Assembly: GCF_902373525.1 (NCBI RefSeq)
Contig: NZ_CABKMN010000005.1
Source: an uncultured Bilophila sp.
GTDB taxonomy: Bacteria; Desulfobacterota; Desulfovibrionia; Desulfovibrionales; Desulfovibrionaceae
Reading direction: 5' to 3' (one strand)
Length of the DNA: 64,000 bases
Positions 9,132-29,245 of this stretch are shown in pieces. Position 1 is the first letter of the stretch; each line of letters starts with the position of its first letter. The translations under genes and the position numbers were made by a program. The notes beneath the pieces were generated by a model. The model saw only the letters and a list, made by a program, of their open reading frames with translations. It searched no databases and was not told where the DNA came from.

Positions 9132-9431
9132 TTACGGCAGCACATGCCGCAGAATCCCGCTTGCGGCGATGCCGATGAGCACCGTGGGCAGCATGGAAAG
9201 ACGGCTCGCCGCCACTACGGTGATCGCCAGCGCCAGCAGTTCGGACGGACGATCCGAAACGAAGGAAGGCGCGATTACGGCAATGAGCACGCAGCCGGGC
9301 GCGGCCTCCATGACCGCCTGCGCGCGGAGGCTCAGGGTCCTGTTCCGCAGCACCACGAATCCCAGCGTCCGGGTCAGATACGTGACCGCCGCCATCGCCA
9401 CGATGGTACACAACGACGCGAAATCAACCAT
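9132..9431 (-). CDS. azlD: Branched-chain amino acid transport protein AzlD
   Basis: ~100-aa hydrophobic protein (MVDFASLCTIVAMAAVTYLTRTLGFVVL). GGAGG RBS before the ATG at 9431. Immediately follows azlC. Confidence 0.75.
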   Translation of the reverse strand: MVDFASLCTIVAMAAVTYLTRTLGFVVLRNRTLSLRAQAVMEAAPGCVLIAVIAPSFVSDRPSELLALAITVVAASRLSMLPTVLIGIAASGILRHVLP

Positions 9432-10149
9432 TGTTTCCTCCCCAGCAGTAGGCGGAGACAAGACCGGAAACCGCTCCCGCGGCGACGTACCAGGCTCCCG
9501 GAACCAGCAGGTAGACGACGGCTGCGACGACGAGGCTCACCAGCCACGGCCGCGCGGAACGGAAGCCCTTCCACATGCCCCGCAGCAGCACCAGAAACAC
9601 CGCCGGAAAGGCCATGCCGAACCCGTAGGACTCCACATCGCCGAGCGAAGGCCCGATGAGAGCCCCGAGCGTCGTGCAACTGACCCAGACGCCGTACATG
9701 CTCGCCGAAACGCCCAGATAATAGGGCAGGCTCAGAGGATTGCGCGCCCCGTCCCGAACGCGTTTCTGGGCGTCCGCGTAGGCCATCGCCCAGCTTTCGT
9801 CGCACATGAAGAACAGCGCGGGCAGCACGTTGCGCTTGGGAAGCCCGTGCAGCCACGGCGTCAGGGCCGCCCCCATGAGCAGGTGGCGGCTGTTGATCAG
9901 GAGCGTTACGGCGGCGATCAGCAACAGATGCGGCGGCGAGGTCCACAACTGGATCGCCGCAAATTCCGATCCGCCCGCAAAGTTCAGCCCGGTCATAAGC
10001 GGCACCTCTATGACGCTGAGCCCTTTCTGTGCGGCCTGCGCGCCCAACACGAGCGCAAAAGGCAGGGTGCCCAAAAGTACGGGCACGGATTCCCGCATCC
10101 CCCGGAAAAATTCGGTTCTCGCCGGAACCCGTTCCGGTGTATCCTGCAT
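9424..10149 (-). CDS. azlC: Branched-chain amino acid permease AzlC
   Basis: Internal start MQDTPERVPARTEFFRGMRESVPVLLGTLPFALVLGAQAAQKGLS. The ~240-aa AzlC family signature is present (GLNFAGGSEFAAIQLW). Upstream part of the long ORF is low-complexity. Confidence 0.8.
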   Translation of the reverse strand: MQDTPERVPARTEFFRGMRESVPVLLGTLPFALVLGAQAAQKGLSVIEVPLMTGLNFAGGSEFAAIQLWTSPPHLLLIAAVTLLINSRHLLMGAALTPWLHGLPKRNVLPALFFMCDESWAMAYADAQKRVRDGARNPLSLPYYLGVSASMYGVWVSCTTLGALIGPSLGDVESYGFGMAFPAVFLVLLRGMWKGFRSARPWLVSLVVAAVVYLLVPGAWYVAAGAVSGLVSAYCWGGNNG

Positions 10150-10362
10150 GACGCCTCCGCTGACTGGTGGTTCTTCTTTGATGAACGGGCATGTCGTTAC
10201 GCTTCCGAGGCGCACCCAGTCAATCCCGGTCCACACGATCCGGCAACGGGCGGCCCCTTCGCGTCCCTTTGCCATTCGCCGGGCTTCGTGGCACTCTGCC
10301 TTTCCGCGCAGCTCGACGCATCCCGCGCGGAAGAAGGCCGGGGATCGCCCGGCGGGAGGGCG

Positions 10363-10618
10363 TATGCGATTTGAAGAAGCGATGGAACTTGCCGAGCGCG
10401 GCGAACTGGTTTCCCGGCCCGGATATGGAACGCGGTTCGTCGCTGTCCGCGACGGGCAGACGCTGTACGGAGGGTTCGTCGGTGAAACCGGATTCGCCGA
10501 CATGCACGCCTATGCGTTCACGGAAGAGGATATCCGGGCCACGGACTGGCGGCGCTTCACCCGTGTCCTTCCCGACGCATGGGAAGGGTGCGACACCCCC
10601 TCAACCGGACGCGGCTAG
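10363..10618 (+). CDS. Small DUF2829-like protein (Tad2/Mw1434-like fold family), hypothetical
   Basis: GGAGGG RBS then ATG. 85-aa ORF MRFEEAMELAERGELVSRPGYGTRFVAVRDG...FTEEDIRATDWRRF matches the N- and C-terminal hallmarks of DUF2829 (MxFxEAxxxxxxGxxVxRxGW ... DxxAxDW) as I recall them. Confidence 0.45.
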
Positions 10619-11085
10619 AGCCTCTTCTCGGAAAGCCGCCCCACTCCCGCCCGACCGCCCCCAGCCAGACAAGCCGGAGGCCCTCCACACCCTCTCGGGG
10701 CGTAAGGGCCTTTCTTTCGGGATGCGCCCAAGCGAAGAAACGAACAACATCGGCGCACGGGCAACCTTCCGTTTTTCTTCCGAAACGGGACCGGAATCCG
10801 CATCCTCGCGCAAAACGTCCCGCCGCATCCGCCCGCGAGGGGCGCTATCATTCCGGCATCGCTGCACAACCGACCTTGTGCACAATAACACAGCAAAGAT
10901 TTTGATCTTTTTCTTTACCTTCCCCTGCCCATCGTTTACGCTGGAAGCACGGCTGGGCGGATTCCTTCCGTGCGGCCGTCCGCGTCAGAGCCGTTTTTTG
11001 TTTCCGCCGACCGGCACCCGCCGGGCGCGGCGCGGCCACCTCCGGCGAGCCGACGAAAGACCCCAAGCCTGTTAAGGAGAACGCC

Positions 11086-12519
11086 ATGCGGACGTACCAG
11101 CAGTTCATCAACGGCAAACTGATTCCCACATCGACCGGACGGTGGATCGACGTGGAAAACCCTTCCACCCGTGAAATCATCGCACAGGTCCCCGACGGCG
11201 ACGAACAGGACGCGCAACAGGCGCTTGAAGCCGCGAAGGCGGCGCAAACCGCGTGGTCCCGCGTACCCGCCGCCACCCGTGCGGGCTACCTCAAACAGTT
11301 CGCCGCCGTCATCCGCGAACACCGGGAAGACCTCGCCCGCCTTCTGGCTTCGGAGCAGGCGAAAGTCGCGCCCCTCGCGCAGGTGGAAGTGGACTTTACC
11401 GCCGACTATTTCGACTATTACGCTGGATGGGCCCGCATATACGAGGGCGAAATCATCCAGAGCGACCGGGATCGGGAAAACATCTTTCTCTTCCGCCAGC
11501 CCATCGGCGTGGTCGCGGGCATCTGCCCGTGGAACTTCCCTCTGTTCGTCATGGCGCGCAAGGTGGCGCCCGCCCTGCTGACCGGCTGCACCGCCGTCAT
11601 CAAGCCGAGCAGCCTTGCGCCCCTGACCGTCATGGCGTTCACCCGGCTGGTCGCGGAGCTTGATCTGCCCGCCGGCGTGCTCAACGTGGTTTCCGGCGGC
11701 GGCTCTACCCTCGGCAACGCCCTTGCCGGAAGCCCGCTTACGGACATGGTCAGCCTGACCGGCAGCGTGGAGGCCGGACAGAAAATCATCGCCGCCGGGG
11801 CTCCCAACATCACCAAGGTCTCTCTGGAACTGGGCGGCAAGGCGCCCGCCATCGTCTGCGAGGACGCGGACCTCGATCTTGCGGTCAAGGCGGTGGTGGC
11901 CTCACGGGTCATCTTCAGCGGACAGGTCTGCAACTGCGCGGAACGCGTGTACGTGCACGAACGCGTGGCCGACGCCTTCGCGGAAAAGCTCGCCAAGGCA
12001 TTCGGACAGGTCGTCGTCGGCGATCCCTTCGACACGCCCGTCCCGGACATGTGCAGCCAGATCGACCGCAACCAGCTTGAAAAGATCGAGGGCATGGTCG
12101 CCACCGCCGTCAAGGAAGGCGCGGAAGTCGTCACCGGCGGCCAGCGGCTCGACAGGCCGGGCGGCTATTATTACAAGCCTACCCTGCTGCGGCAGTGCCG
12201 TCAGGACATGGAGATCGTCCGCAAGGAGGTCTTCGGTCCCGTACTGCCCATGCTCACCTTCTCCGAGTTCGACGAAGCCGTCGATCTCGCCAACGATTGC
12301 GAATACGGCCTGACCTCCTCGATATACACCCGCGACCTCTCGCGGGCGCTCGAAGCCGTCAATCGCCTGAAGTTCGGAGAAACCTACGTCAACCGTGAAA
12401 ACTTCGAAGCCATGCAGGGCTTCCACGCCGGATGGCGCAAGTCGGGCATCGGCGGCGCGGACGGCAAGCACGGCCTCTTCGAATATCTGCAATCCCACGT
12501 GGCCTACATCCAGTATTGA
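11086..12519 (+). CDS. aldA: Lactaldehyde/glycolaldehyde dehydrogenase AldA (NAD+-dependent aldehyde dehydrogenase)
   Basis: 477 aa, near colinear with E. coli AldA recalled from memory (EVEVDFTADYFDYYAGWARIYEGEIIQSD, ELGGKAPAIV, GQVCNCAERVYV, YVNRENFEAMQGFHAGWRKSGIGGADGKHGLFEYLQ). Good RBS. Confidence 0.9.
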   Translation: MRTYQQFINGKLIPTSTGRWIDVENPSTREIIAQVPDGDEQDAQQALEAAKAAQTAWSRVPAATRAGYLKQFAAVIREHREDLARLLASEQAKVAPLAQVEVDFTADYFDYYAGWARIYEGEIIQSDRDRENIFLFRQPIGVVAGICPWNFPLFVMARKVAPALLTGCTAVIKPSSLAPLTVMAFTRLVAELDLPAGVLNVVSGGGSTLGNALAGSPLTDMVSLTGSVEAGQKIIAAGAPNITKVSLELGGKAPAIVCEDADLDLAVKAVVASRVIFSGQVCNCAERVYVHERVADAFAEKLAKAFGQVVVGDPFDTPVPDMCSQIDRNQLEKIEGMVATAVKEGAEVVTGGQRLDRPGGYYYKPTLLRQCRQDMEIVRKEVFGPVLPMLTFSEFDEAVDLANDCEYGLTSSIYTRDLSRALEAVNRLKFGETYVNRENFEAMQGFHAGWRKSGIGGADGKHGLFEYLQSHVAYIQY

Positions 12520-21690: not shown

Positions 21691-21765
21691 TGGGCTATCG
21701 TTCAATTGGCAGGACGACGGATTCTGGTCCCGTTAATCGTGGTTCAAGTCCACGTAGCCCAGCCA
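21691..21765 (+). tRNA. tRNA-Gln (anticodon CTG)
   Basis: 75 nt folded by hand. Acceptor TGGGCTA/TAGCCCA with U1:A72 as in bacterial tRNA-Gln. D-arm GTTC/GGAC. Anticodon loop TTCTGGT. T-arm CGTGG-TTCAAGT-CCACG. Discriminator G plus CCA. Confidence 0.8.
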
Positions 21766-21779
21766 ACACGCACTCAGAC

Positions 21780-21856
21780 GTCCCCATCGTCTAGCCGGCC
21801 CAGGACAGCGGCCTTTCACGCCGTCAACAGCGGTTCAAATCCGCTTGGGGACGCCA
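21780..21856 (+). tRNA. tRNA-Glu (anticodon TTC)
   Basis: GTCCCCATCGTCTAGCCGGCCCAGGACAGCGGCCTTTCACGCCGTCAACAGCGGTTCAAATCCGCTTGGGGACGCCA is near-identical in architecture to E. coli tRNA-Glu. Anticodon loop CTTTCAC. Encoded CCA. Confidence 0.9.
21809..21856 (+). repeat. attL core, 3' 48 nt of tRNA-Glu
   Basis: CGGCCTTTCACGCCGTCAACAGCGGTTCAAATCCGCTTGGGGACGCCA, repeated at 33662-33709. Confidence 0.75.
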
Positions 21857-21865
21857 AGAAAAATC

Positions 21866-21897
21866 AAGCACTTACATGAAATGTAAGTGCTTTTTTC
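21866..21897 (+). terminator. Rho-independent terminator just inside the island, terminating the tRNA operon
   Basis: AAGCACTTACAT-gaa-ATGTAAGTGCTT perfect 12-bp hairpin followed by TTTTTCG. Confidence 0.6.
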
Positions 21898-21900
21898 GTA

Positions 21901-21934
21901 TGTGGGGCAAATTTGCCCCACGCTCTGCCCCATA
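21901..21934. promoter_or_regulatory. Putative integrase arm-type binding sites, left end
   Basis: TGTGGGGCA (inverted), TTGCCCCAC and CTGCCCCAT within 34 nt. The same TGCCCCAC motif is repeated at the right end. Confidence 0.4.
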
Positions 21935-21995
21935 GATTCTGACGATTTGAATAACTAACCAAAACAGTATAAGAAATTATTAAGTGAGGGTTGAG

Positions 21996-22808
21996 ATGGT
22001 TACGATATCGGAATTTGCTCAAGATATTATCACAAAACAATACAAAAATCTTGTCCAAGCAAAGAGGCCTGAATATCTCTCTGTATGGCCACTCATCCAT
22101 GGTTATGTCTTAGTCTTTTACACATTTAATGACTGGATAATTCTTTCATTAAAAAATAACTCACCTAATTTTTTTAATACAAGCGGCGGCTCAGCTTTAC
22201 CACAATCAATTATCGGATTTTCAGAAATAACCTCCCAGAATATTAATGTAGTAAGAGAAAATATAAAAAAATATGCTGGAATTGATCGTGATGGGGGTGT
22301 TATAATTTTCAATAACGATGGCAGAGACGTAAATTTCACAGAAGAACTAGACCTTCTTTTAAAACAGCATGATATGATGTTTGGATTGAGGCCAATGAAA
22401 ATATTTTTAAGTCACAAGTCTGAAGATAAAGTCAATATAGTTAGAGATTACAAGCAAACGCTCCAGCTGCTCGGTTTTGACCCTTGGATTGATGAAGATG
22501 CAATGGTCGCCGGAACTAAGCTAGAGCGTGGTATTCTGCAAGGTTTTCAAGATTCTTGTGCTGTGGTTTTCTTTATCACTGAAAATTTTAAGGATGAAGA
22601 TTTTTTAGCAACTGAAATTGATTACGCTCTCAACCGGACTAGAGAAGATAAAAATTTTGCAATTATCACAATTGTTTTGGACAGTGGTTTAACGGTTCCA
22701 GATTTGCTGCGCCCATATGTTTGGAAAAATGTGGATAGCCAGTTAGAAGGACTGCGCGAAATATTGAAAGCACTTCCTATCTCGGTCGGACCAGTTTATA
22801 TGAAGTGA
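21996..22808 (+). CDS. TIR-domain protein with uncharacterised ~135-aa N-terminal domain (candidate antiphage/NADase effector)
   Basis: GTGAGGG RBS then ATG at 21996. 270 aa. C-terminal ~130 aa is a bacterial TIR domain (KIFLSHKSEDKVNIVRDYKQTLQLLGFDPWIDEDAM...AVVFFITENFKDEDFLATEIDYAL). The FLSHKSED beta-A motif and conserved Glu in FITENF match TIR NADase motifs. The N-terminal half has no recognisable family. Codon usage is AT-rich, unlike the host. Confidence 0.75.
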   Translation: MVTISEFAQDIITKQYKNLVQAKRPEYLSVWPLIHGYVLVFYTFNDWIILSLKNNSPNFFNTSGGSALPQSIIGFSEITSQNINVVRENIKKYAGIDRDGGVIIFNNDGRDVNFTEELDLLLKQHDMMFGLRPMKIFLSHKSEDKVNIVRDYKQTLQLLGFDPWIDEDAMVAGTKLERGILQGFQDSCAVVFFITENFKDEDFLATEIDYALNRTREDKNFAIITIVLDSGLTVPDLLRPYVWKNVDSQLEGLREILKALPISVGPVYMK

Positions 22809-22937
22809 CGATTCCGAGTAATTGTTTTTTTGAGGAGGTGCTTCAAAACACCTTTATTCTTTGCTGGCCTGCCGTTCCGATGAAAAAGAAGGAGGAAAAT
22901 ATGTATTTTAAAATGATGAACAGTAAATGATTTCTAT

Positions 22938-23084
22938 TTAAAATAGAAGATATATTCCGTATATAATACTTAAAATTGATAGAACTGCAACAAATAAATC
23001 AACAAAAGGCTTAACTGCTCCTTGTAGTTTTAGTATGCTTGGAAATACAAATATACCAAGAAATAGAAAAATGAATGCTTTCAT
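22938..23084 (-). CDS. Tiny hydrophobic peptide (48 aa, 2 predicted TM helices), hypothetical
   Basis: GAGGA RBS 8 nt before the ATG. MKAFIFLFLGIFVFPSILKLQGAVKPFVDLFVAVLSILSIIYGIYLLF*. Below the 60-aa cutoff of the ORF track. Convergent with the TIR gene, separated by palindrome TTCTATTTAAAATAGAA. Confidence 0.35.
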   Translation of the reverse strand: MKAFIFLFLGIFVFPSILKLQGAVKPFVDLFVAVLSILSIIYGIYLLF

Positions 23085-23376
23085 GTGACTTGTCCTCATC
23101 TTTTTATGACGCTAATTTTATCATCGAGCAATGGTTCGCCTGGGGAATTATGGTTATAAACATCATAATATACAGCTTCATATGTATTTTTACCTAGAGT
23201 TTCGGGAAGAACATGTAGCATAATGGGTAGCACACTTCTTAAATCTCCACTTGATCCTATGCTATGTATAAAGACTTTCCATACTTGATTTCCTAATTTT
23301 ATATCTTCATTTTTTTATTTAATCCATATGCAGTCATTCCTATATGTCGTTCGTAGTCAGTATATGTTCGCACATT

Positions 23377-23826
23377 CTACTGGTATCCAACAATTCCGTA
23401 TCTAGGCATTGGATAAGTTTGAGTATTATATGTACCATATATATTATTTTTATCAAGCGTCGAATTGCTATTCCCATAAGTATATGAACTACACCCAGTA
23501 ATGCCAGTTACGGGAGTATTATATGTTTCAATGTGCTCTTTGGGTTCGCTTATTCCATAGCCTACCATTACAATATAGTCAGCATTGTATAAATTTTCAG
23601 TTACTATCATATTTTTATTTTCAAAATATGGTTTTAATAATAGGCAAACCTCTTTAAATTGCAAATCATTAATATTTACCCCCTTGTCTAAAGGAAAAAA
23701 ATAATAATTTTTATTTTCCATGGTATAATTATCTACTGCAGATATTGCATCAACACCAACACTGTATTTTGTGCTTGCACATCCTGACAAAAAAATAAAA
23801 AGAACAAAAATAAAATAACGAATCAT
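23377..23826 (-). CDS. Lipoprotein, hypothetical
   Basis: AAAGGAG RBS then ATG at 23826. Signal peptide plus lipobox MIRYFIFVLFIFLSGC. 149-aa Tyr/Asn/Gly-rich mature protein. AT-rich foreign codon usage. Confidence 0.6.
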   Translation of the reverse strand: MIRYFIFVLFIFLSGCASTKYSVGVDAISAVDNYTMENKNYYFFPLDKGVNINDLQFKEVCLLLKPYFENKNMIVTENLYNADYIVMVGYGISEPKEHIETYNTPVTGITGCSSYTYGNSNSTLDKNNIYGTYNTQTYPMPRYGIVGYQ

Positions 23827-24112
23827 ATGTTCTCCTTTTTTGATCAGTATCCAAGCCTGTGAGAATCTGAATAATTTTTTCAAGATTTCACATGTAGTTG
23901 AAACGGGTGAACAGGGAGCAATCGCGGCGTTCCGACCATATCTTCTACGGGCTCGCGACCGTCATCCAATGGTGATGGGATATGCCCTCACCAAAAACTG
24001 TACTTTGAGGGAAAGAGGGGCAAAGGGAAAATTTGTTGTCCAGGGAGGTTTGACAGGGACTATTTTTTTACCTAAAAGAGAAAAAATGAATTTCCCCAAA
24101 AAGTACACCTTG

Positions 24113-24727
24113 TTAGACAATATCAACACGGCCTTCCCGAAGGTTTCTGGCTTTTCGGTAAAAGGTGCTTGATGGCATCTTGCATCTTCTGGCGGCCTCC
24201 AAGCCGGAGATGCGGCCATTGAGCCAGAGGTCGCAATTTTCCAGAAAGTTGTCCGGCAAGGGTTTGACCTCACGACCAAAACGCACGCCACGTTGTTTGG
24301 CTGCGGCAATACCTTGGGCTTGCCTGTTGCGGATGTTCTCGCGTTCGTTCTGAGCCACGAAGGAAAGCACCTGCAAGACAAGATCGGCGATGAACGTGCC
24401 GAGCAGGTTTTTGTCGCGTCTGGTGTCGAGCAGGGGCATGTCCAGGACGAGGATATCCACGCGCTTTTCCTTGGTCAGCACGCGCCACTGTTCCAGAATT
24501 TCCTCATAGTTTCTGCCAAGTCGGTCAATGCTGGTGACGCAGAGCAGATCCCCCGGCCTGACTTTTTTGAGCATGGCCTGATACTGCGGGCGCTGGAAAT
24601 CTTTGCCCGACATTTTATCCATGAAAATGTGACCTGGCGGTATGCCCTGCTGCTCAAGAGCGATGCGCTGACGGCTCTCGTTCTGATCGGTGCTGGATAC
24701 GCGGATGTATCCGTACGTTTCTGCCAT
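24113..24727 (-). CDS. Serine recombinase (resolvase/invertase family)
   Basis: AAGGAG RBS then ATG at 24727. MAETYGYIRVSSTDQNESRQ catalytic-Ser motif. DRLGRN. C-terminal HTH. 204 aa, comparable to Hin/Gin/TnpR. Confidence 0.85.
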   Translation of the reverse strand: MAETYGYIRVSSTDQNESRQRIALEQQGIPPGHIFMDKMSGKDFQRPQYQAMLKKVRPGDLLCVTSIDRLGRNYEEILEQWRVLTKEKRVDILVLDMPLLDTRRDKNLLGTFIADLVLQVLSFVAQNERENIRNRQAQGIAAAKQRGVRFGREVKPLPDNFLENCDLWLNGRISGLEAARRCKMPSSTFYRKARNLREGRVDIV

Positions 24728-24755
24728 GGCGTTTTCTCCTTTCATTAGATTCTTT

Positions 24756-25121
24756 TCACAGTTCATTATTCGCGGCATCTGACGGTGTATCCGCAGCAAT
24801 AAGTTGTTGTGCTGTTTGTGTTTCGCAGGCGGGCGGGGGCGTGTCTCTCTTTTGCGTTTTCCGGTCTTCCCGCTGTCGTCTGGCCTCGGTCAGATATTTA
24901 GTCAGGGTTTGGGCCTTTATCTCAATCCCTTTCTCATGCAGCTTTTCGACAATCTCCTGAGTATCAAAGCCGCGCTTTTTCATCCGCTCCAGCGTTGGGG
25001 CAAGGGAGAAAATGGCCTCCTTGATGGTCATGGGCCTGTGTCCATCCAGTGTAACGGTGGCGGGCTTGAGTTTGGCGAACTCCTGTCGGATTTCCTTCAG
25101 TTGGCTGGCTGTGATGGTCAT
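24756..25121 (-). CDS. Hypothetical protein downstream of mob (possible DNA-binding relaxosome/partition accessory)
   Basis: ATAGGAGA RBS then ATG at 25121 (MTITASQLKEIRQEFAKLKPATV...). 121 aa, charged helical C-terminal half. No confident family assignment. Confidence 0.45.
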   Translation of the reverse strand: MTITASQLKEIRQEFAKLKPATVTLDGHRPMTIKEAIFSLAPTLERMKKRGFDTQEIVEKLHEKGIEIKAQTLTKYLTEARRQREDRKTQKRDTPPPACETQTAQQLIAADTPSDAANNEL

Positions 25122-25268
25122 GGTGGTTTCTCCTATGGATGATGGGGGCATGTTCCCGGTTTTGTCTTTTGCCTTTGGCGGTCAAGCGGTACGCTTGCCC
25201 ACTGGTTTTCGTTAGAAAACCATAGTGAACTATATCTTCGGCCTGTGCGAAGATTTCCCCCCGACGCC

Positions 25269-26455
25269 TTACCTCATTCTCATGCCACGGGCGAAATGCG
25301 CCTGCCGACGCTCCCTATCCCGCGCCTCCTGCTCCTGCCGCTGCCGTTCCTCTTCCTGCTGCCGTTGGAGCTGTTCGGCACGCTTGCGCTCCACGAACTC
25401 GATATGCAGCGGCCGGATTTCCGGCAGAAGCAAAAACTCCCGATAGCCTGCCATGATTCTCTTCATTTTCTTTAGCTGAGATTCCAGCTCTTCTTTTTCC
25501 TCATGACTCTGTTTCTTGTGGGCCGTGTATTCCGCTTCAAGCCGCATCAGTTTTCCGCGAAGGGTATCCACTTCCCGTTGCAGTGTTTCTTCCCGCTGCT
25601 GGACAAGGTGTTTGACGGCAAGCGCCTTTTTCAGTTCGTCAATGAGGGAAGAGGCTTTTTTCAGCACGGACGGATAATTGAGAAAAGAGGCTTTCGGTAG
25701 ATCGGTCTCCTCCCGAAGTACCTTTTCCGCTTCCTCAGCCTGCCGTTCATACTCTTCAATGCTCTTTCTCAACTCTTCTTCACGCTGTTCCAATACGTTG
25801 ATAAGCTGCCGTGAATTTTGTGCGGTCTCTTCGGACTCCTGAATCAGTTTCTCCAATGCTTCCTGTTGCTGCTCGAACTCGCGGATATCCAGATGCTTTT
25901 TCGCTGAGCCAAGCGTCTGTTCCACGCCGCGTTCAATAGTGAAGCCCCGGCTTTGCAGATGGGCGGGAAGCCCGGCTTGCAGTTTTCGCAGACTCTGACG
26001 GGTATAGATTTTGTTGGCGTTGAGCCTCCCGTCCGGCGTCACCGGCACATGAAGGAAGTGCATGTGCGGCGTCTTTTCATCCATGTGAACCATTGCGGAA
26101 ATGACATTCTCCGCGCCCACAAATTCCGTGAGAAAGGCTTGCTCTCCTCAAAGAAACGCCTTGTTTCCTCCGGCGTGAGGCCATCAAAAAACGCCTTGTC
26201 CGAGGTGACGATAAGCCCGCACATACGCACGGCGTCCTTTCTTACAGCCTTGACCAGCAGGAGGTCGTCAATACGATTCTGAATGACCTCGGCATAGTTC
26301 GACGAGGCGGATTCGTGCAGCTCGTAGTTCGCCGCGCTTCTGTCGTAGTCAATATCGGGGTTGCTGTGGCTCTCCCGCTCCCGCCGGTTGTGGCTCTGGA
26401 TGCCGCGTATGGCTTCCTTCTTGAATTTGTCCATATGGAGTACGAGATAGGACAT
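25269..26455 (-). pseudogene. mob: MobV-family relaxase (Mob_Pre), frameshifted
   Basis: The N-terminal ORF 26039-26455 (MSYLVLHMDKFKKEAIRGIQSHNRRERESHSNPDID...FFEESKPF) and C-terminal ORF 25269-26120 (...ENVISAMVHMDEKTPHMHFLHVPV, then a long coiled-coil) are the two halves of a Mob_Pre relaxase. They are in different frames. Continuity (FFEESKPF|LTEFVGAENVISAMVHMDE) needs a 1-nt indel near 26130-26145. Confidence 0.75.
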
Positions 26456-26481
26456 GGCTTTTCCCTTTGTTCATTTTCAGC

Positions 26482-26618
26482 GGTGACAACGGTGACAGTG
26501 GTGACAATCGAGCAATGGCAATGCTTTTCGGCTGTCACCACTCAAATATGCAATGGTGACAGTGGTGACAGGCGTAAACCCTTGCGGCTGTAGGTTTGTC
26601 ACCATTGTCACCACTCAA
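26482..26618. repeat. Iteron array (GGTGACA heptamers, direct and inverted); candidate oriV/oriT
   Basis: GGTGACA at 26482, 26491, 26500 (9-bp phasing), 26554 and 26563. Inverted TGTCACC at 26533 and 26597. 12-bp GTCACCACTCAA repeated at 26534 and 26607. Lies between the primase-helicase stop and the mob start. Confidence 0.6.
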
Positions 26619-29245
26619 TCAGGCAAGGCAGGAGCAGTTTCTTCATCCGGGTCATCAGACAAACAAACAATGTAGACACGCACGCGCCCTAGACCAGGAA
26701 GTCTTTCCTGATGCTTCAGTCTGTTTTTAGAAGGAGTGCGTAACCATCCAGCTTCACGCAGAACACGCACAGCCCTTGCCTCTGCGTATCCCCTGACGAC
26801 TTCGGCTCGAAAACTTTCCGGCAGAATCAGATACTCGGTCGTGCCGTTGCGAGTGCGCTGAAATCCCACCCGGTTGATGCAGGTGGACATTTGCGTATCC
26901 AAATCCTGAAAGCGGCTTGCGCCGTGCTGTTCGATGAACAGCCGTACCGTGGAAAGGATGGCGGCATCCTCGGAAGCTCCGGTACCGCCTCTTGCCGTGA
27001 GCCAGTCCCGGAAGCAGATTTCGATGCAGTTCAATACGTCCAGCTTTTCGGGAAGGAGGCCCAGCCGCAGGGCCAGCATTCCGGCCATGCCGCACAGGGC
27101 GAAGCGCATGGCCACACGTCGTACCTGTCCGTCAGCGCCTTCGGGGACAAGATGCCTGACGGCATCGGCCATTGCCGGGCCGATTTCCGCCCGGACGGCG
27201 TTCAGGGTTTCGATCTTCGTCAGCTTTTGCAGAAAATCATGCCCCGCATGGCCATAATGTTCGGAAGCAAGTTGTTTGATGCGATTGGCCACGGCTCCGG
27301 CATCGGGAAGGCCATGCAGGCTGGCGAGCATGGACGAGTCCACAGGCAGCCCCACGAAACGTACTTCCTGTCCGCCCCTGGATTTCAGACCGTTCTCGGC
27401 CAGCTTGTCGGAAAGCCCCAGTTCGCCGCTGGAGAGAAAGAGCAGACGCCAGTTCTGGGAACGGCGAATTCCGCCTTCACGGTTCGAGCGGCCTTTGCCC
27501 TGTCCGTTGGCCAGCATGTAGGCGCATTCGGCAAGAACTCGTCCGTTGACCTGCCCCATTTCATCCAGAATCAGCACATTGTCGCTGTGCAGGGCGGCGA
27601 TGCCTTCAAGCCCGTTGTCCGTAGCCCGCCAGCTTCGGACATGCTCAGGACCGCCCCAGACGGAGGCGGCGATCTGCAATGCCGTGGTCTTACCGGAGGA
27701 TGAGCCTCCCTCAAAGCTGAAGCCGCCGCCTTCCAGACCGGCCGGGCGAAGCAAAGGCCCGGCGAAGGCCGCGCATAACGCGAAACTGAGACGGGAGTTG
27801 CCGACGCACAATTCCGCTATCTCCCGCCAGCCTTCCATCGTTCCAGATGTACGGTACAAGCCGCCATACTGTGAAGATTGCAGCACGGTGTCTTCTTCTG
27901 TTACGCCGTAAACGGTATCGGGAAGCACGTAGACGGATTCATGCAAGCCCGTGCGCAAAACACAGCGTATCCGTCGGAGGGGCCGGCCCGCGGACAGAAA
28001 TGTCGCCAGCTTCGACCGGGTGGACGGATTGCCGAACCACCCGCCGGAGGCCAGTATGCTGTACCAGTCGTTTCCCTGCCGGAACAGCATTTCCACGGGC
28101 ATGGCCCATGCGTACTTGTTGCCGTCCGGGTCAATCCATTCCAGCATCAGGCCCCATTCGTTGCCGTCAGCTCCCCGCGTCATGCCTTTGACCAGAAGCG
28201 GAGGACCAAGCCGGATTTCCTGACTGTCTCCGTCCGATCTGGTCTCCAGCTTGTACAGCCCGGCGCGTCTGCCTTCCTTCACCAGAAAAAAGCCTTCCGG
28301 CATGGGGCAGTCGTCATCTCGCTTTCGCGCTTCTTCCACAACGGCCCGGACGGCTTCAAGGGAACGCAGCCGGTGCAGGTCGTTGAAGTCCGTCGCTTTG
28401 CCTTCATGAACCGGGCAGACGGCCAGCTTGCCGCCCACGGCCTGAGCCGCCAGAGAGGCCATCTTCTTGCCGGGATTCCCTTGTGTCTCCATGTCGTTAT
28501 CGGCACAGAGGATGATTTCACGCTTTGCATATCTCTCTCTGGCCATGACGGCCACGGCTTTCAGATTCCCGGCATTGAAGGCCACAAGACAGACATAACC
28601 GGTCGCCAGATGAAGACTGGTCGCTGTGGCATACCCCTCGGCGATCAGCAGGGGACCGTCTTTCTTCCCGTCTCCGGCGGAAAGGGAAAAGAAGCCTCCC
28701 GCCGTACGTCCTCCCTTGAGAAAGAACTTGTCCGTACCCTCGGCAGTTTGTTCCGGCAGGATGAATTGCAGACTTTGTATCCTGCCGGACTGGTTCAGAA
28801 CAGGGATAATCAGACGCCCGTCTTTTGTCCGGCGCAATCCGATGGCCGGGACTTCCTTCCGCTGTAGATAGGGATGCCCGTCATCAGCGGGCAGGGCATG
28901 ATTCCAGATGCTCGCGGCCAGCTTTGCGGCCGCCTGCCAACGATGCTCCTGTTTGGCGTCATTATATGCTTTGATAGCCCTGATGCGTTCACGCAGAGCA
29001 TCCCGCTCGGCGGCAGTCAGTTCCTTCTCAGGTTTGTATGTCCACGTTCCTTCGTCACCCGTGCACCAGTTCTTCCACCAAAGCGAGGCGGGTACATCAG
29101 GAAACGCCTTGTACGCCCCGTCCCTGCGATACGGTCTGCCTTCCGTGCCGCAACGGTGCAGGCTCCCGTCCATTTCCACCTGCTCGACAATCAGCCCGGC
29201 TGCCCGGAGCTGTTCGGCAAAGGCCCGCTGAATATCCGCGCTCAT
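26615..29245 (-). CDS. Plasmid/phage-type DNA primase-helicase (N-terminal primase region, Toprim domain, DUF927/SF3 helicase)
   Basis: 876 aa. Toprim motif [13 protein letters not shown]...ILCADND. Walker [10 protein letters not shown] and Walker B VLILDE of a P4-alpha/DUF927-type SF3 helicase. Typical replication module of integrative elements. Confidence 0.85.

Follow-up and report, generated by a model that had tools for sequence, protein, structure and literature searches.

The DNA considered here is a 64,000-nucleotide stretch (hereafter the window) of contig NZ_CABKMN010000005.1, assembly GCF_902373525.1, from an uncultured Bilophila sp. It contains an island of about 11.85 kb, integrated at a tRNA-Glu gene, and this island carries as cargo a gene for a 270-amino-acid (aa) protein in which an N-terminal domain without matches in profile libraries is joined to a C-terminal TIR domain. 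The coordinates of this gene and of the other features of the locus are collected in Table 1.

The TIR gene and its two domains

The open reading frame (ORF) proposed in the first-pass annotation of this DNA proved to be real. It ran intact on the + strand from the ATG at 21996 to the TGA at 22806-22808, it was preceded by a Shine-Dalgarno sequence (GAGGG) 5 nucleotides (nt) upstream, and its closest relatives used the same start methionine; an alternative GTG start was located at 21984. The exact protein was present in two metagenome assemblies, including a second independent sequencing run, and the window DNA was 100 % identical to one ENA metagenome scaffold. The AlphaFold2 (AF2) model of the whole protein displayed a mean predicted local distance difference test (pLDDT) score of 85.9.

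Residues 135 to 270 form a TIR domain, both by profile and by predicted fold, as had been proposed in the first place. Pfam TIR_2 (PF13676) matched residues 136-247 (E=3.4e-14, 53.8 bits against a gathering cutoff of 28). A phmmer search of all PDB chains retrieved AbTir (7uwg/8g83, E ~6e-8) and BtTir (7uxr), with E values from 6e-8 to 6e-7 for these two, together with PdTIR and BtpA/TcpB, and a profile built from 44 family members recovered the same list. AbTir and BtTir were the best sequence matches among solved structures (E 1e-10 to 1e-7). When the AF2 model was compared with the PDB by Foldseek, the top 50 matches were all TIR-domain proteins, including all 45 with E<=1e-3; SPARTA TIR-APAZ, AbTir, SARM1 and Toll-like receptors (TLRs) were among them, and TM-scores on the target reached 0.73 (AbTir 7uxu).

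The typical TIR motifs were represented by the bA strand KIFLSHK (part of KIFLSHKSEDK, residues 135-145, exactly where it had been noticed before), the WIDEDAM loop and SCAVVFFIT. The conserved glutamate had initially been placed in FITENF, and this assignment was wrong: that residue (E196) was a proline in 30 of the 44 relatives. The invariant glutamate is E207 in LATEIDYAL (ATEIDYA), which aligned with the glutamate of AbTir 'WTNYELDG' and was found in all 44 sequences. Since E207 is invariant and aligned with AbTir while E196 is not conserved, E207 is the residue to mutate. The other TIR residues found invariant in the 44 sequences were S139, H140, K145, R150, W164, D166-E167-D168, S187 and C188. 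With its catalytic position intact at E207, the domain is predicted to be an NAD+ (nicotinamide adenine dinucleotide) glycohydrolase or cyclase effector.

The N-terminal region had been described as unassignable and it remained so: residues 1-132 displayed no match in Pfam, NCBIfam, PADLOC or PHROGs when the window protein and 31 relatives were scanned singly, and a Foldseek search of this domain against the viral predicted structures of BFVD gave no match at E<=1e-3. Modelled alone from a 31-sequence alignment (pLDDT 91.2, predicted TM-score (pTM) 0.82), it adopted a mixed alpha/beta fold with the predicted order a1 (residues 4-23), a2, b1, b2, b3, a3 (83-94), b4 and a4 (115-128). Six of its residues were invariant (Y16, W31, P32, G36, R87 and H125). 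An NYN/PIN-like origin was rejected, the profile match to the NYN domain of MARF1 being weak (E=0.075 over 67 residues) and without structural backing. The N-domain is a narrow, specific module, carried by only 104 of 1.84 billion cluster representatives in an exhaustive HMMER search. Within the family, mean pairwise identity was 34 % for the N-domain versus 67 % for the TIR domain; this approximately two-fold faster divergence is expected of a recognition module.

Family distribution and exchange of modules

A word-index search returned 1129 homologue matches in many phyla. The 120 homologues listed were nearly all about 264-290 aa long (a few reached up to 401 aa), covered 93-100 % of the query and displayed identities mostly of 42-50 %; the full-length homologues ranged over 43-91 % identity. 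Hosts named among them included Halotalea, Methylobacterium, Clostridium, Enterobacter, Pontibacter and Komagataeibacter; a scan of one genome per species added Armatimonadota (Fimbriimonadaceae), Cyanobacteria, Candidatus Uhrbacteria, Myxococcota, Pasteurellaceae and others. Sorangium and Gallionellaceae were also among the family hosts, which comprised both isolates and metagenome-assembled genomes (MAGs). Two plasmids harbored full-length copies. When 5,426 E. coli genomes were searched by blastn with an Enterobacter family member, nothing was found, which is a weak negative.

All ORFs within 3.5 kb of the gene were clustered for 42 non-redundant loci. Any given neighbour family was shared by two of them at most, so that the TIR gene travels alone; its earlier description as a stand-alone gene thus held for the window island as well as for the loci of its relatives. 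Also in agreement with the first-pass annotation, no SIR2, SLOG, STING, SAVED, Ago, cyclase or ThsA partner was encountered among the main island ORFs scanned.

Nine neighbourhoods annotated with Pfam provided the evidence on defence and mobile context. One relative was located in a Mob_Pre/integrase element that immediately follows a Phd-ParE pair, another on an IncFII plasmid, where TacAT and a SIR2-STAND protein are its neighbours, and a third where a prophage lysis cassette ends, with an AIPR protein encoded nearby. Others adjoined a cytosine methylase with Vsr, a DUF433/DUF5615 pair with an insertion sequence (IS) fragment, or SymE with IS elements, and a Komagataeibacter island displayed AAA_15, ParDE, HNH and a Thoeris-like cluster. 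It had been suggested at the outset to check whether homologues recur in defence islands; relatives did lie beside toxin-antitoxin, restriction-modification, Avs-like, Thoeris-like and AIPR genes and were found on mobile elements. In the case of Komagataeibacter europaeus CP021467 (positions 9383-12518 of locus L013), the region immediately downstream of the family member carried, on the opposite strand, three TIR/ThsB_TIR genes and an LD_cluster2 gene. They were flanked by HTH_37/Gp49, with a patatin gene nearby, and formed a dense, TIR-rich defence island.

Both halves of the protein are demonstrably portable. About 40 loci of the genome scan matched only residues ~133-270, at 53-60 % identity, as compared with 57-67 % between the TIR domains of the family itself and that of the window. 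In the corresponding ORFs, once reconstructed, this TIR clade was linked to at least five further partners: an N-module of ~120-144 aa (e.g. in Bacillus, Lysinibacillus and Heyndrickxia), an N-module of ~165 aa (from Anaerolineae, Acidobacteriota and other taxa), a zinc-ribbon-like N-module that is rich in Cys and accompanied by a C-terminal extension, an unassigned 282-aa N-region, and a form in which the TIR comes first and is followed by a C-terminal domain. Kinship of the window N-domain with the two commonest of these N-modules was rejected on the basis of hhalign (probability <1 %). The ~165-aa and zinc-ribbon-like modules (L063, L080) matched the PADLOC candidates PDC-M14B (E=7e-11) and PDC-M14A (E=3.7e-14), respectively, which suggests that modules of these multi-gene candidates were reused as fused input domains.

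The window N-domain, for its part, was also found fused to a PF10137 (CAP12/Pycsar-type) TIR, in proteins of 333-773 aa, and to a divergent TIR_2 with an additional C-terminal domain; both kinds of fusion kept the six invariant residues. Counting this N-domain, one TIR clade is therefore combined with at least six partners and one N-domain with at least two TIR types. The four longest proteins of the PF10137 group (P0144, P0152, P0156 and P0150; 608-773 aa) displayed long low-complexity linkers and an unusual architecture, in which the N-domain is followed by an acidic linker of 100-300 aa, a PF10137 TIR matching PADLOC PDC-S35 and a coiled-coil-like tail at the C-terminus.

The tRNA-Glu island and its other cargo

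Two direct copies of a 49-nt segment from the 3' end of tRNA-Glu bounded the island, these attachment site (att) copies differing by one mismatch; an att pattern search of the window gave two matches versus none expected. G+C content (GC) dropped to 0.35/0.34 at 22-24 kb, in the AT-rich cargo block, versus ~0.63 in the flanks. The low-GC module that had been perceived at the edge of a tRNA-integrated island was thereby confirmed. A third, internal att copy that would set the AT-rich block apart from the remaining island was sought, and none was found at <=3 mismatches.

Table 1. Features of the TIR gene and of the tRNA-Glu island, with positions in the window
Feature	Position	Strand	Evidence or remark
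tRNA-Gln	21691-21765		ARAGORN; just upstream of tRNA-Glu
tRNA-Glu(UUC), integration target	21780..21856	+	ARAGORN; direct repeat; its 3' 48 nt lie within attL (21809-21857)
12-bp hairpin followed by a T-run, terminator-like	21866..21892	+	Terminator scan; first island-side sequence
TIR gene, two-domain protein	21996..22808	+	ORF list, homologues, AF2 model
N-terminal domain (aa 1-132), proposed sensor/clustering module	21996..22391	+	Unmatched in profile libraries; own AF2 model
TIR domain (aa 135-270)	22398..22805	+	Pfam TIR_2; PDB sequence and fold matches
E207 codon GAA, start of helix aC	22614..22616	+	phmmer alignment; conserved in 44/44
Hydrophobic ORF, 53 aa (48 aa from second ATG), coding status doubtful	22938..23099	-	ORF list
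Putative lipoprotein, 149 aa, signal peptide and lipobox LSGC	23377..23826	-	Sequence; from ATG preceded by a ribosome-binding site
Serine recombinase (resolvase), island backbone	24113..24799	-	Pfam Resolvase, E=8.6e-30; first gene past the AT-rich block
Mob_Pre relaxase, two overlapping ORFs	25269-26455	-	138-aa ORF, profile positions 4-111; 283-aa ORF, positions 116-195 and coiled coil
DUF927/Toprim primase-like protein	26618-29245		Profile match
360-aa ORF in second low-GC patch (GC 0.41 at 30-31 kb)	29775-30854	-	No match
Fic/DOC protein, 308 aa, SoFic-like	31088-32011	-	PADLOC SoFic, E=6.4e-38; Pfam Fic and Fic-like_C
Tyrosine integrase, adjoins attR	32205..33467	-	Pfam Phage_integrase, E=2.2e-31
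attR, right copy of tRNA-Glu repeat	33662..33710	+	48/49 nt identical

The exact TIR protein was also encoded on an independently assembled 11,864-bp Logan contig from SRR5273993 (L095), corresponding to window positions 21828-25808. This contig is almost as long as the island from att to att (11,853 bp) and starts inside the att repeat, so that the island was assembled as a unit by itself. Such a contig would agree with excision of the island as a circle or with its being present in only part of the population sampled.

A much reduced arrangement was encountered in the MAG Proteobacteria OH_SBB_109 (L007/L008/L014), in which a 77 %-identical TIR gene and 425 nt of downstream sequence were found between two 45-nt copies of this tRNA-Glu att sequence (L008 9808-9852 and 11238-11282, 1430 bp apart). 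No tRNA gene was present in this locus within ~10 kb on each side of the TIR gene (L007). The left copy was directly followed by a terminator-like hairpin (L008 9853-9870), 'AGAAAATTAAGCACTTAC', as compared with 'GAAAAATCAAGCACTTAC' in the window. This att-TIR-att arrangement with the same hairpin indicates that the junction between att and TIR gene is ancestral and that the gene is able to persist as a minimal att-flanked cassette. The cassette was probably left by tandem accretion of islands or by deletion.

A hydrophobic peptide and a lipoprotein encoded downstream of the TIR gene had been counted as part of the same module. Both ORFs exist; their membership in a common system was rejected. 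Nucleotide homology with a 91 %-identical relative ended at 23033, inside the hydrophobic ORF, and neither ORF recurred beside the TIR gene of relatives, neighbours being shared by at most two of the 42 loci. The hydrophobic ORF had no family match in profile scans, and neither source assembly had it annotated as a gene. The lipoprotein, regarded as unrelated AT-rich cargo, displayed only a weak match to DUF4136 (Pfam, E=0.055).

The split of the Mob_Pre relaxase reflects an assembly error or else a pseudogene with a frameshift; if it is real, the island may have lost its mobilisability. Between the relaxase and the DUF927/Toprim gene, clustered direct repeats of 20-21 nt were observed at 26478-26626, with CAACGGTGACAGTGGTGACA occurring three times and TGTCACCACTCAA... 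twice; they are iteron-like and may mark the origin of the element. The 360-aa ORF, for which Pfam, PHROGs and PADLOC gave no match, may be further unrecognised cargo. The SoFic match of the Fic protein spanned profile positions 58-313 of 361, making this gene a second candidate defence gene on the island.

Proposed function, known systems and alternatives

The family is characterised by its two-domain anatomy with an intact catalytic motif, its stand-alone genetics, its mobile and defence-island context and the shuffling of its modules. A conserved effector coupled to a fast-evolving, swappable input domain with no partner gene constitutes the signature of a one-protein sensor-effector. By analogy with SpbK and TIR-V/IX, the gene is judged, with somewhat better than even confidence, to encode a single-protein TIR NADase of abortive infection, carried as island cargo and equipped with a new sensor. 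The C-terminal TIR would then be the effector and the ~132-aa N-terminal domain the input module, which would keep the protein inactive until an infection-derived trigger binds, most plausibly a multimeric structural or replication component of a phage. Binding would cluster the TIR domains head-to-tail, with composite active sites around E207 arising between neighbouring TIRs. NAD+ would be cleaved into nicotinamide and adenosine diphosphate ribose (ADPR) and/or a cyclic ADPR (cADPR) isomer, and the infected cell would be starved of NAD+ and phage replication aborted. In this scheme, the NADase activity, the role of oligomerisation in activation, the kind of trigger and the abortive outcome are borrowed from SpbK, TIR-V/IX and general TIR enzymology.

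SpbK (YddK), encoded by ICEBs1 of Bacillus subtilis, is a single-gene protein of ~266 aa with an N-terminal recognition domain and a C-terminal TIR NADase (PMC12847820). Docking of its N-domain onto the SPbeta portal, at the clip domain, activates the protein by clustering the TIR domains and leads to abortive infection, the TIR filament interfaces being required (PMC12847820). The window protein resembles it in being a single protein of comparable size, composed of an N-domain and a TIR, on an integrative mobile element without partner gene; across the 42 loci the gene was stand-alone, without conserved partner and on mobile DNA, as in the SpbK-like functional class. Membership in SpbK itself was nevertheless rejected. 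The N-domain of SpbK is described with helices a1-a4, whereas that of the window protein is predicted to be mixed alpha/beta, and the PADLOC spbK model missed the window protein at E<=1 and matched only five of the 44 relatives, at 2e-4 or weaker. No chain named SpbK was present among the PDB sequence and Foldseek matches, the presence of entry 9PHB in the searched PDB sets being unconfirmed. In E. coli, TIR-V, TIR-VI as well as TIR-IX represent established single-protein sensor-TIR systems of abortive infection (PMC11350192). Compared by description only, they are similar to the window protein: they are stand-alone, combine a variable N-terminus with a C-terminal TIR and depend on the TIR catalytic residue for defence (PMC11350192). 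The candidate had been announced as an undescribed system, which stands at the level of the family; its kind was already known from SpbK (PMC12847820) and TIR-V/VI/IX (PMC11350192).

Other known groups shared the TIR domain and little else. AbTir and BtTir, like the Tcp proteins PdTIR and BtpA/TcpB, are of similar size and have a C-terminal TIR with the same position of the catalytic glutamate. Their N-domains are coiled coils unrelated to that of the window protein, and they are not established phage sensors; in AbTir, the alignment began at residue 43 of the 184-aa chain 8g83, where the TIR starts, leaving the 42 upstream residues unaligned. Membership in this group was rejected, homology ending at the TIR boundary. 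Thoeris is defined by an adjacent ThsA effector. ThsB is likewise a TIR protein that detects infection, and hidden Markov models of ThsB partially matched the family; however, scans of the main island ORFs revealed no effector of the ThsA type (SIR2-SLOG, Macro-TM or the like), and none was encountered in the neighbourhoods of relatives, except for the one Thoeris-like cluster on the opposite strand, and Thoeris was rejected for want of an adjacent partner of this type. TIR effectors of CBASS/Pycsar (TIR-SAVED, TIR-STING, PycTIR) were dismissed as well, as the N-domain displayed no SAVED, STING or cyclic-nucleotide-binding fold and no cyclase lay nearby; the SAVED_TIR model matched the window protein in its TIR part only (positions 15-104 of 404). 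PDC-S66, a single-gene TIR candidate of PADLOC, has a similar layout (TIR at profile positions 149-233 of 282). It gave the best E value among the models matching all 44 members and was second-best by a hair for the window protein. Only the TIR segment aligned (E=4e-11 for the window protein, 1.7e-12 at best over the 44 members), the N-terminus being different, and membership was rejected since the 282-position model was not matched over its full length.

Several observations weigh against a self-contained sensor-effector for abortive infection. The strict invariance of six N-domain residues (Y, W-P, G, R, H) suits a ligand pocket or a structural core better than a protein-binding surface engaged in an arms race. 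Promoter-like sites in the region were no commoner than in shuffled sequence and none was located upstream of the TIR gene. Just three full-length copies were found in IMG/VR contigs and no homologue in 50,697 phage genomes. A PADLOC search, which had been recommended from the start, gave no model matching the window protein or any family member beyond the TIR domain, and no experimental study of any family member was found. Finally, AbTir and BtTir are best known as producers of cADPR isomers and less as fast NAD+ depleters.

These being the closest solved TIRs, the protein could be a signaller instead of an effector: an orphan TIR of the ThsB kind, which senses infection and whose main product, a cADPR isomer or some other conjugate of ADPR, activates an effector encoded elsewhere. 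The PADLOC ThsB models matched the TIR part in 29 of the 44 members (best E=2.8e-10), NCBIfam gave a weak match to ThcB4 of Thoeris type III, one relative adjoined a Thoeris-like cluster (three TIR genes and LD_cluster2), and the authors of the SpbK study leave room for an unlinked N1-cADPR receptor (PMC12847820). Such an orphan is held to be unlikely, since 41 of the 42 loci had no Thoeris-like neighbour and no partner was conserved. Lone travel on islands, plasmids and prophages across many phyla would moreover strand the signaller from its receptor, and the gene exists as a minimal att-TIR-att cassette.

The invariant residues, which include Tyr, Arg and His and persist even on a different TIR type, would also fit an effector gated by a small molecule, its N-domain sensing a nucleotide or metabolite of infection or stress in a manner functionally like STING, SAVED or SLOG. 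The N-domain was paired only with effectors of the TIR superfamily, among them PF10137, described in Pfam as the TIR of second-messenger-gated CAP12/Pycsar effectors. No cyclase or other signal-synthase gene was conserved nearby in the loci examined, however, and the N-domain diverges fast apart from the six residues, which makes gating of this type rather improbable. A broader proposition, which is speculative and on balance doubtful, is that the N-domain represents a sensor fold not recognised before and reserved for effectors of the TIR superfamily, in which the conserved Tyr/Trp-Pro/Gly/Arg/His site would receive a conserved signal of infection, be it a small molecule or some invariant trait of a phage component.

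There is little likelihood that the role is not immune at all, i.e. that the protein acts as an addiction or conflict toxin stabilising the island or opposing other elements, or as a Tcp-like protein (TcpB/TcpC/TirS type) delivered to animal cells to dampen TLR signalling. The gene was always found on mobile DNA, often beside toxin-antitoxin pairs, and its layout of 250-300 aa with an N-domain and a C-terminal TIR recalls the Tcp proteins, whose TIR structures (4c7m, 4lzp, 4lqc, 3h16) were among the matches. Yet no cognate antitoxin was conserved in the 42 loci, similarity to Tcp proteins was limited to the TIR domain, and no signal peptide or secretion-associated gene was noticed, no formal search for them having been made. 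The family occurred in MAGs and isolates across a very wide range of phyla (e.g. Halotalea, Sorangium, Gallionellaceae, Pontibacter and Candidatus Uhrbacteria), and most of its host taxa are not known as animal pathogens. That the gene is merely decaying cargo of a defective island, as the split relaxase and the lack of an identified promoter might indicate, is very improbable: the ORF is full-length, has a good Shine-Dalgarno sequence and retains every residue invariant in the family, and an identical copy was recovered from a second independent sequencing run.

No current concept is overturned by the sensor-effector reading, and its practical value is modest, lying in a better annotation of the 'TIR domain-containing protein' genes of islands and plasmids and in the corrected mutation target, E207. 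If active, these proteins would enlarge the small group of TIR immune sensors made of a single protein by a widespread family, which has more than 1000 clustered sequences in many bacterial phyla and is not covered by the PADLOC models of 2023. Should the N-domain prove to be a dedicated sensor fold, it would represent a new class of input for bacterial TIR immunity and offer, at ~270 aa, a compact, widespread and tractable model of the minimal domain that switches a TIR on. The portability of both halves constitutes a natural experiment on how recognition domains are wired to TIR activation.

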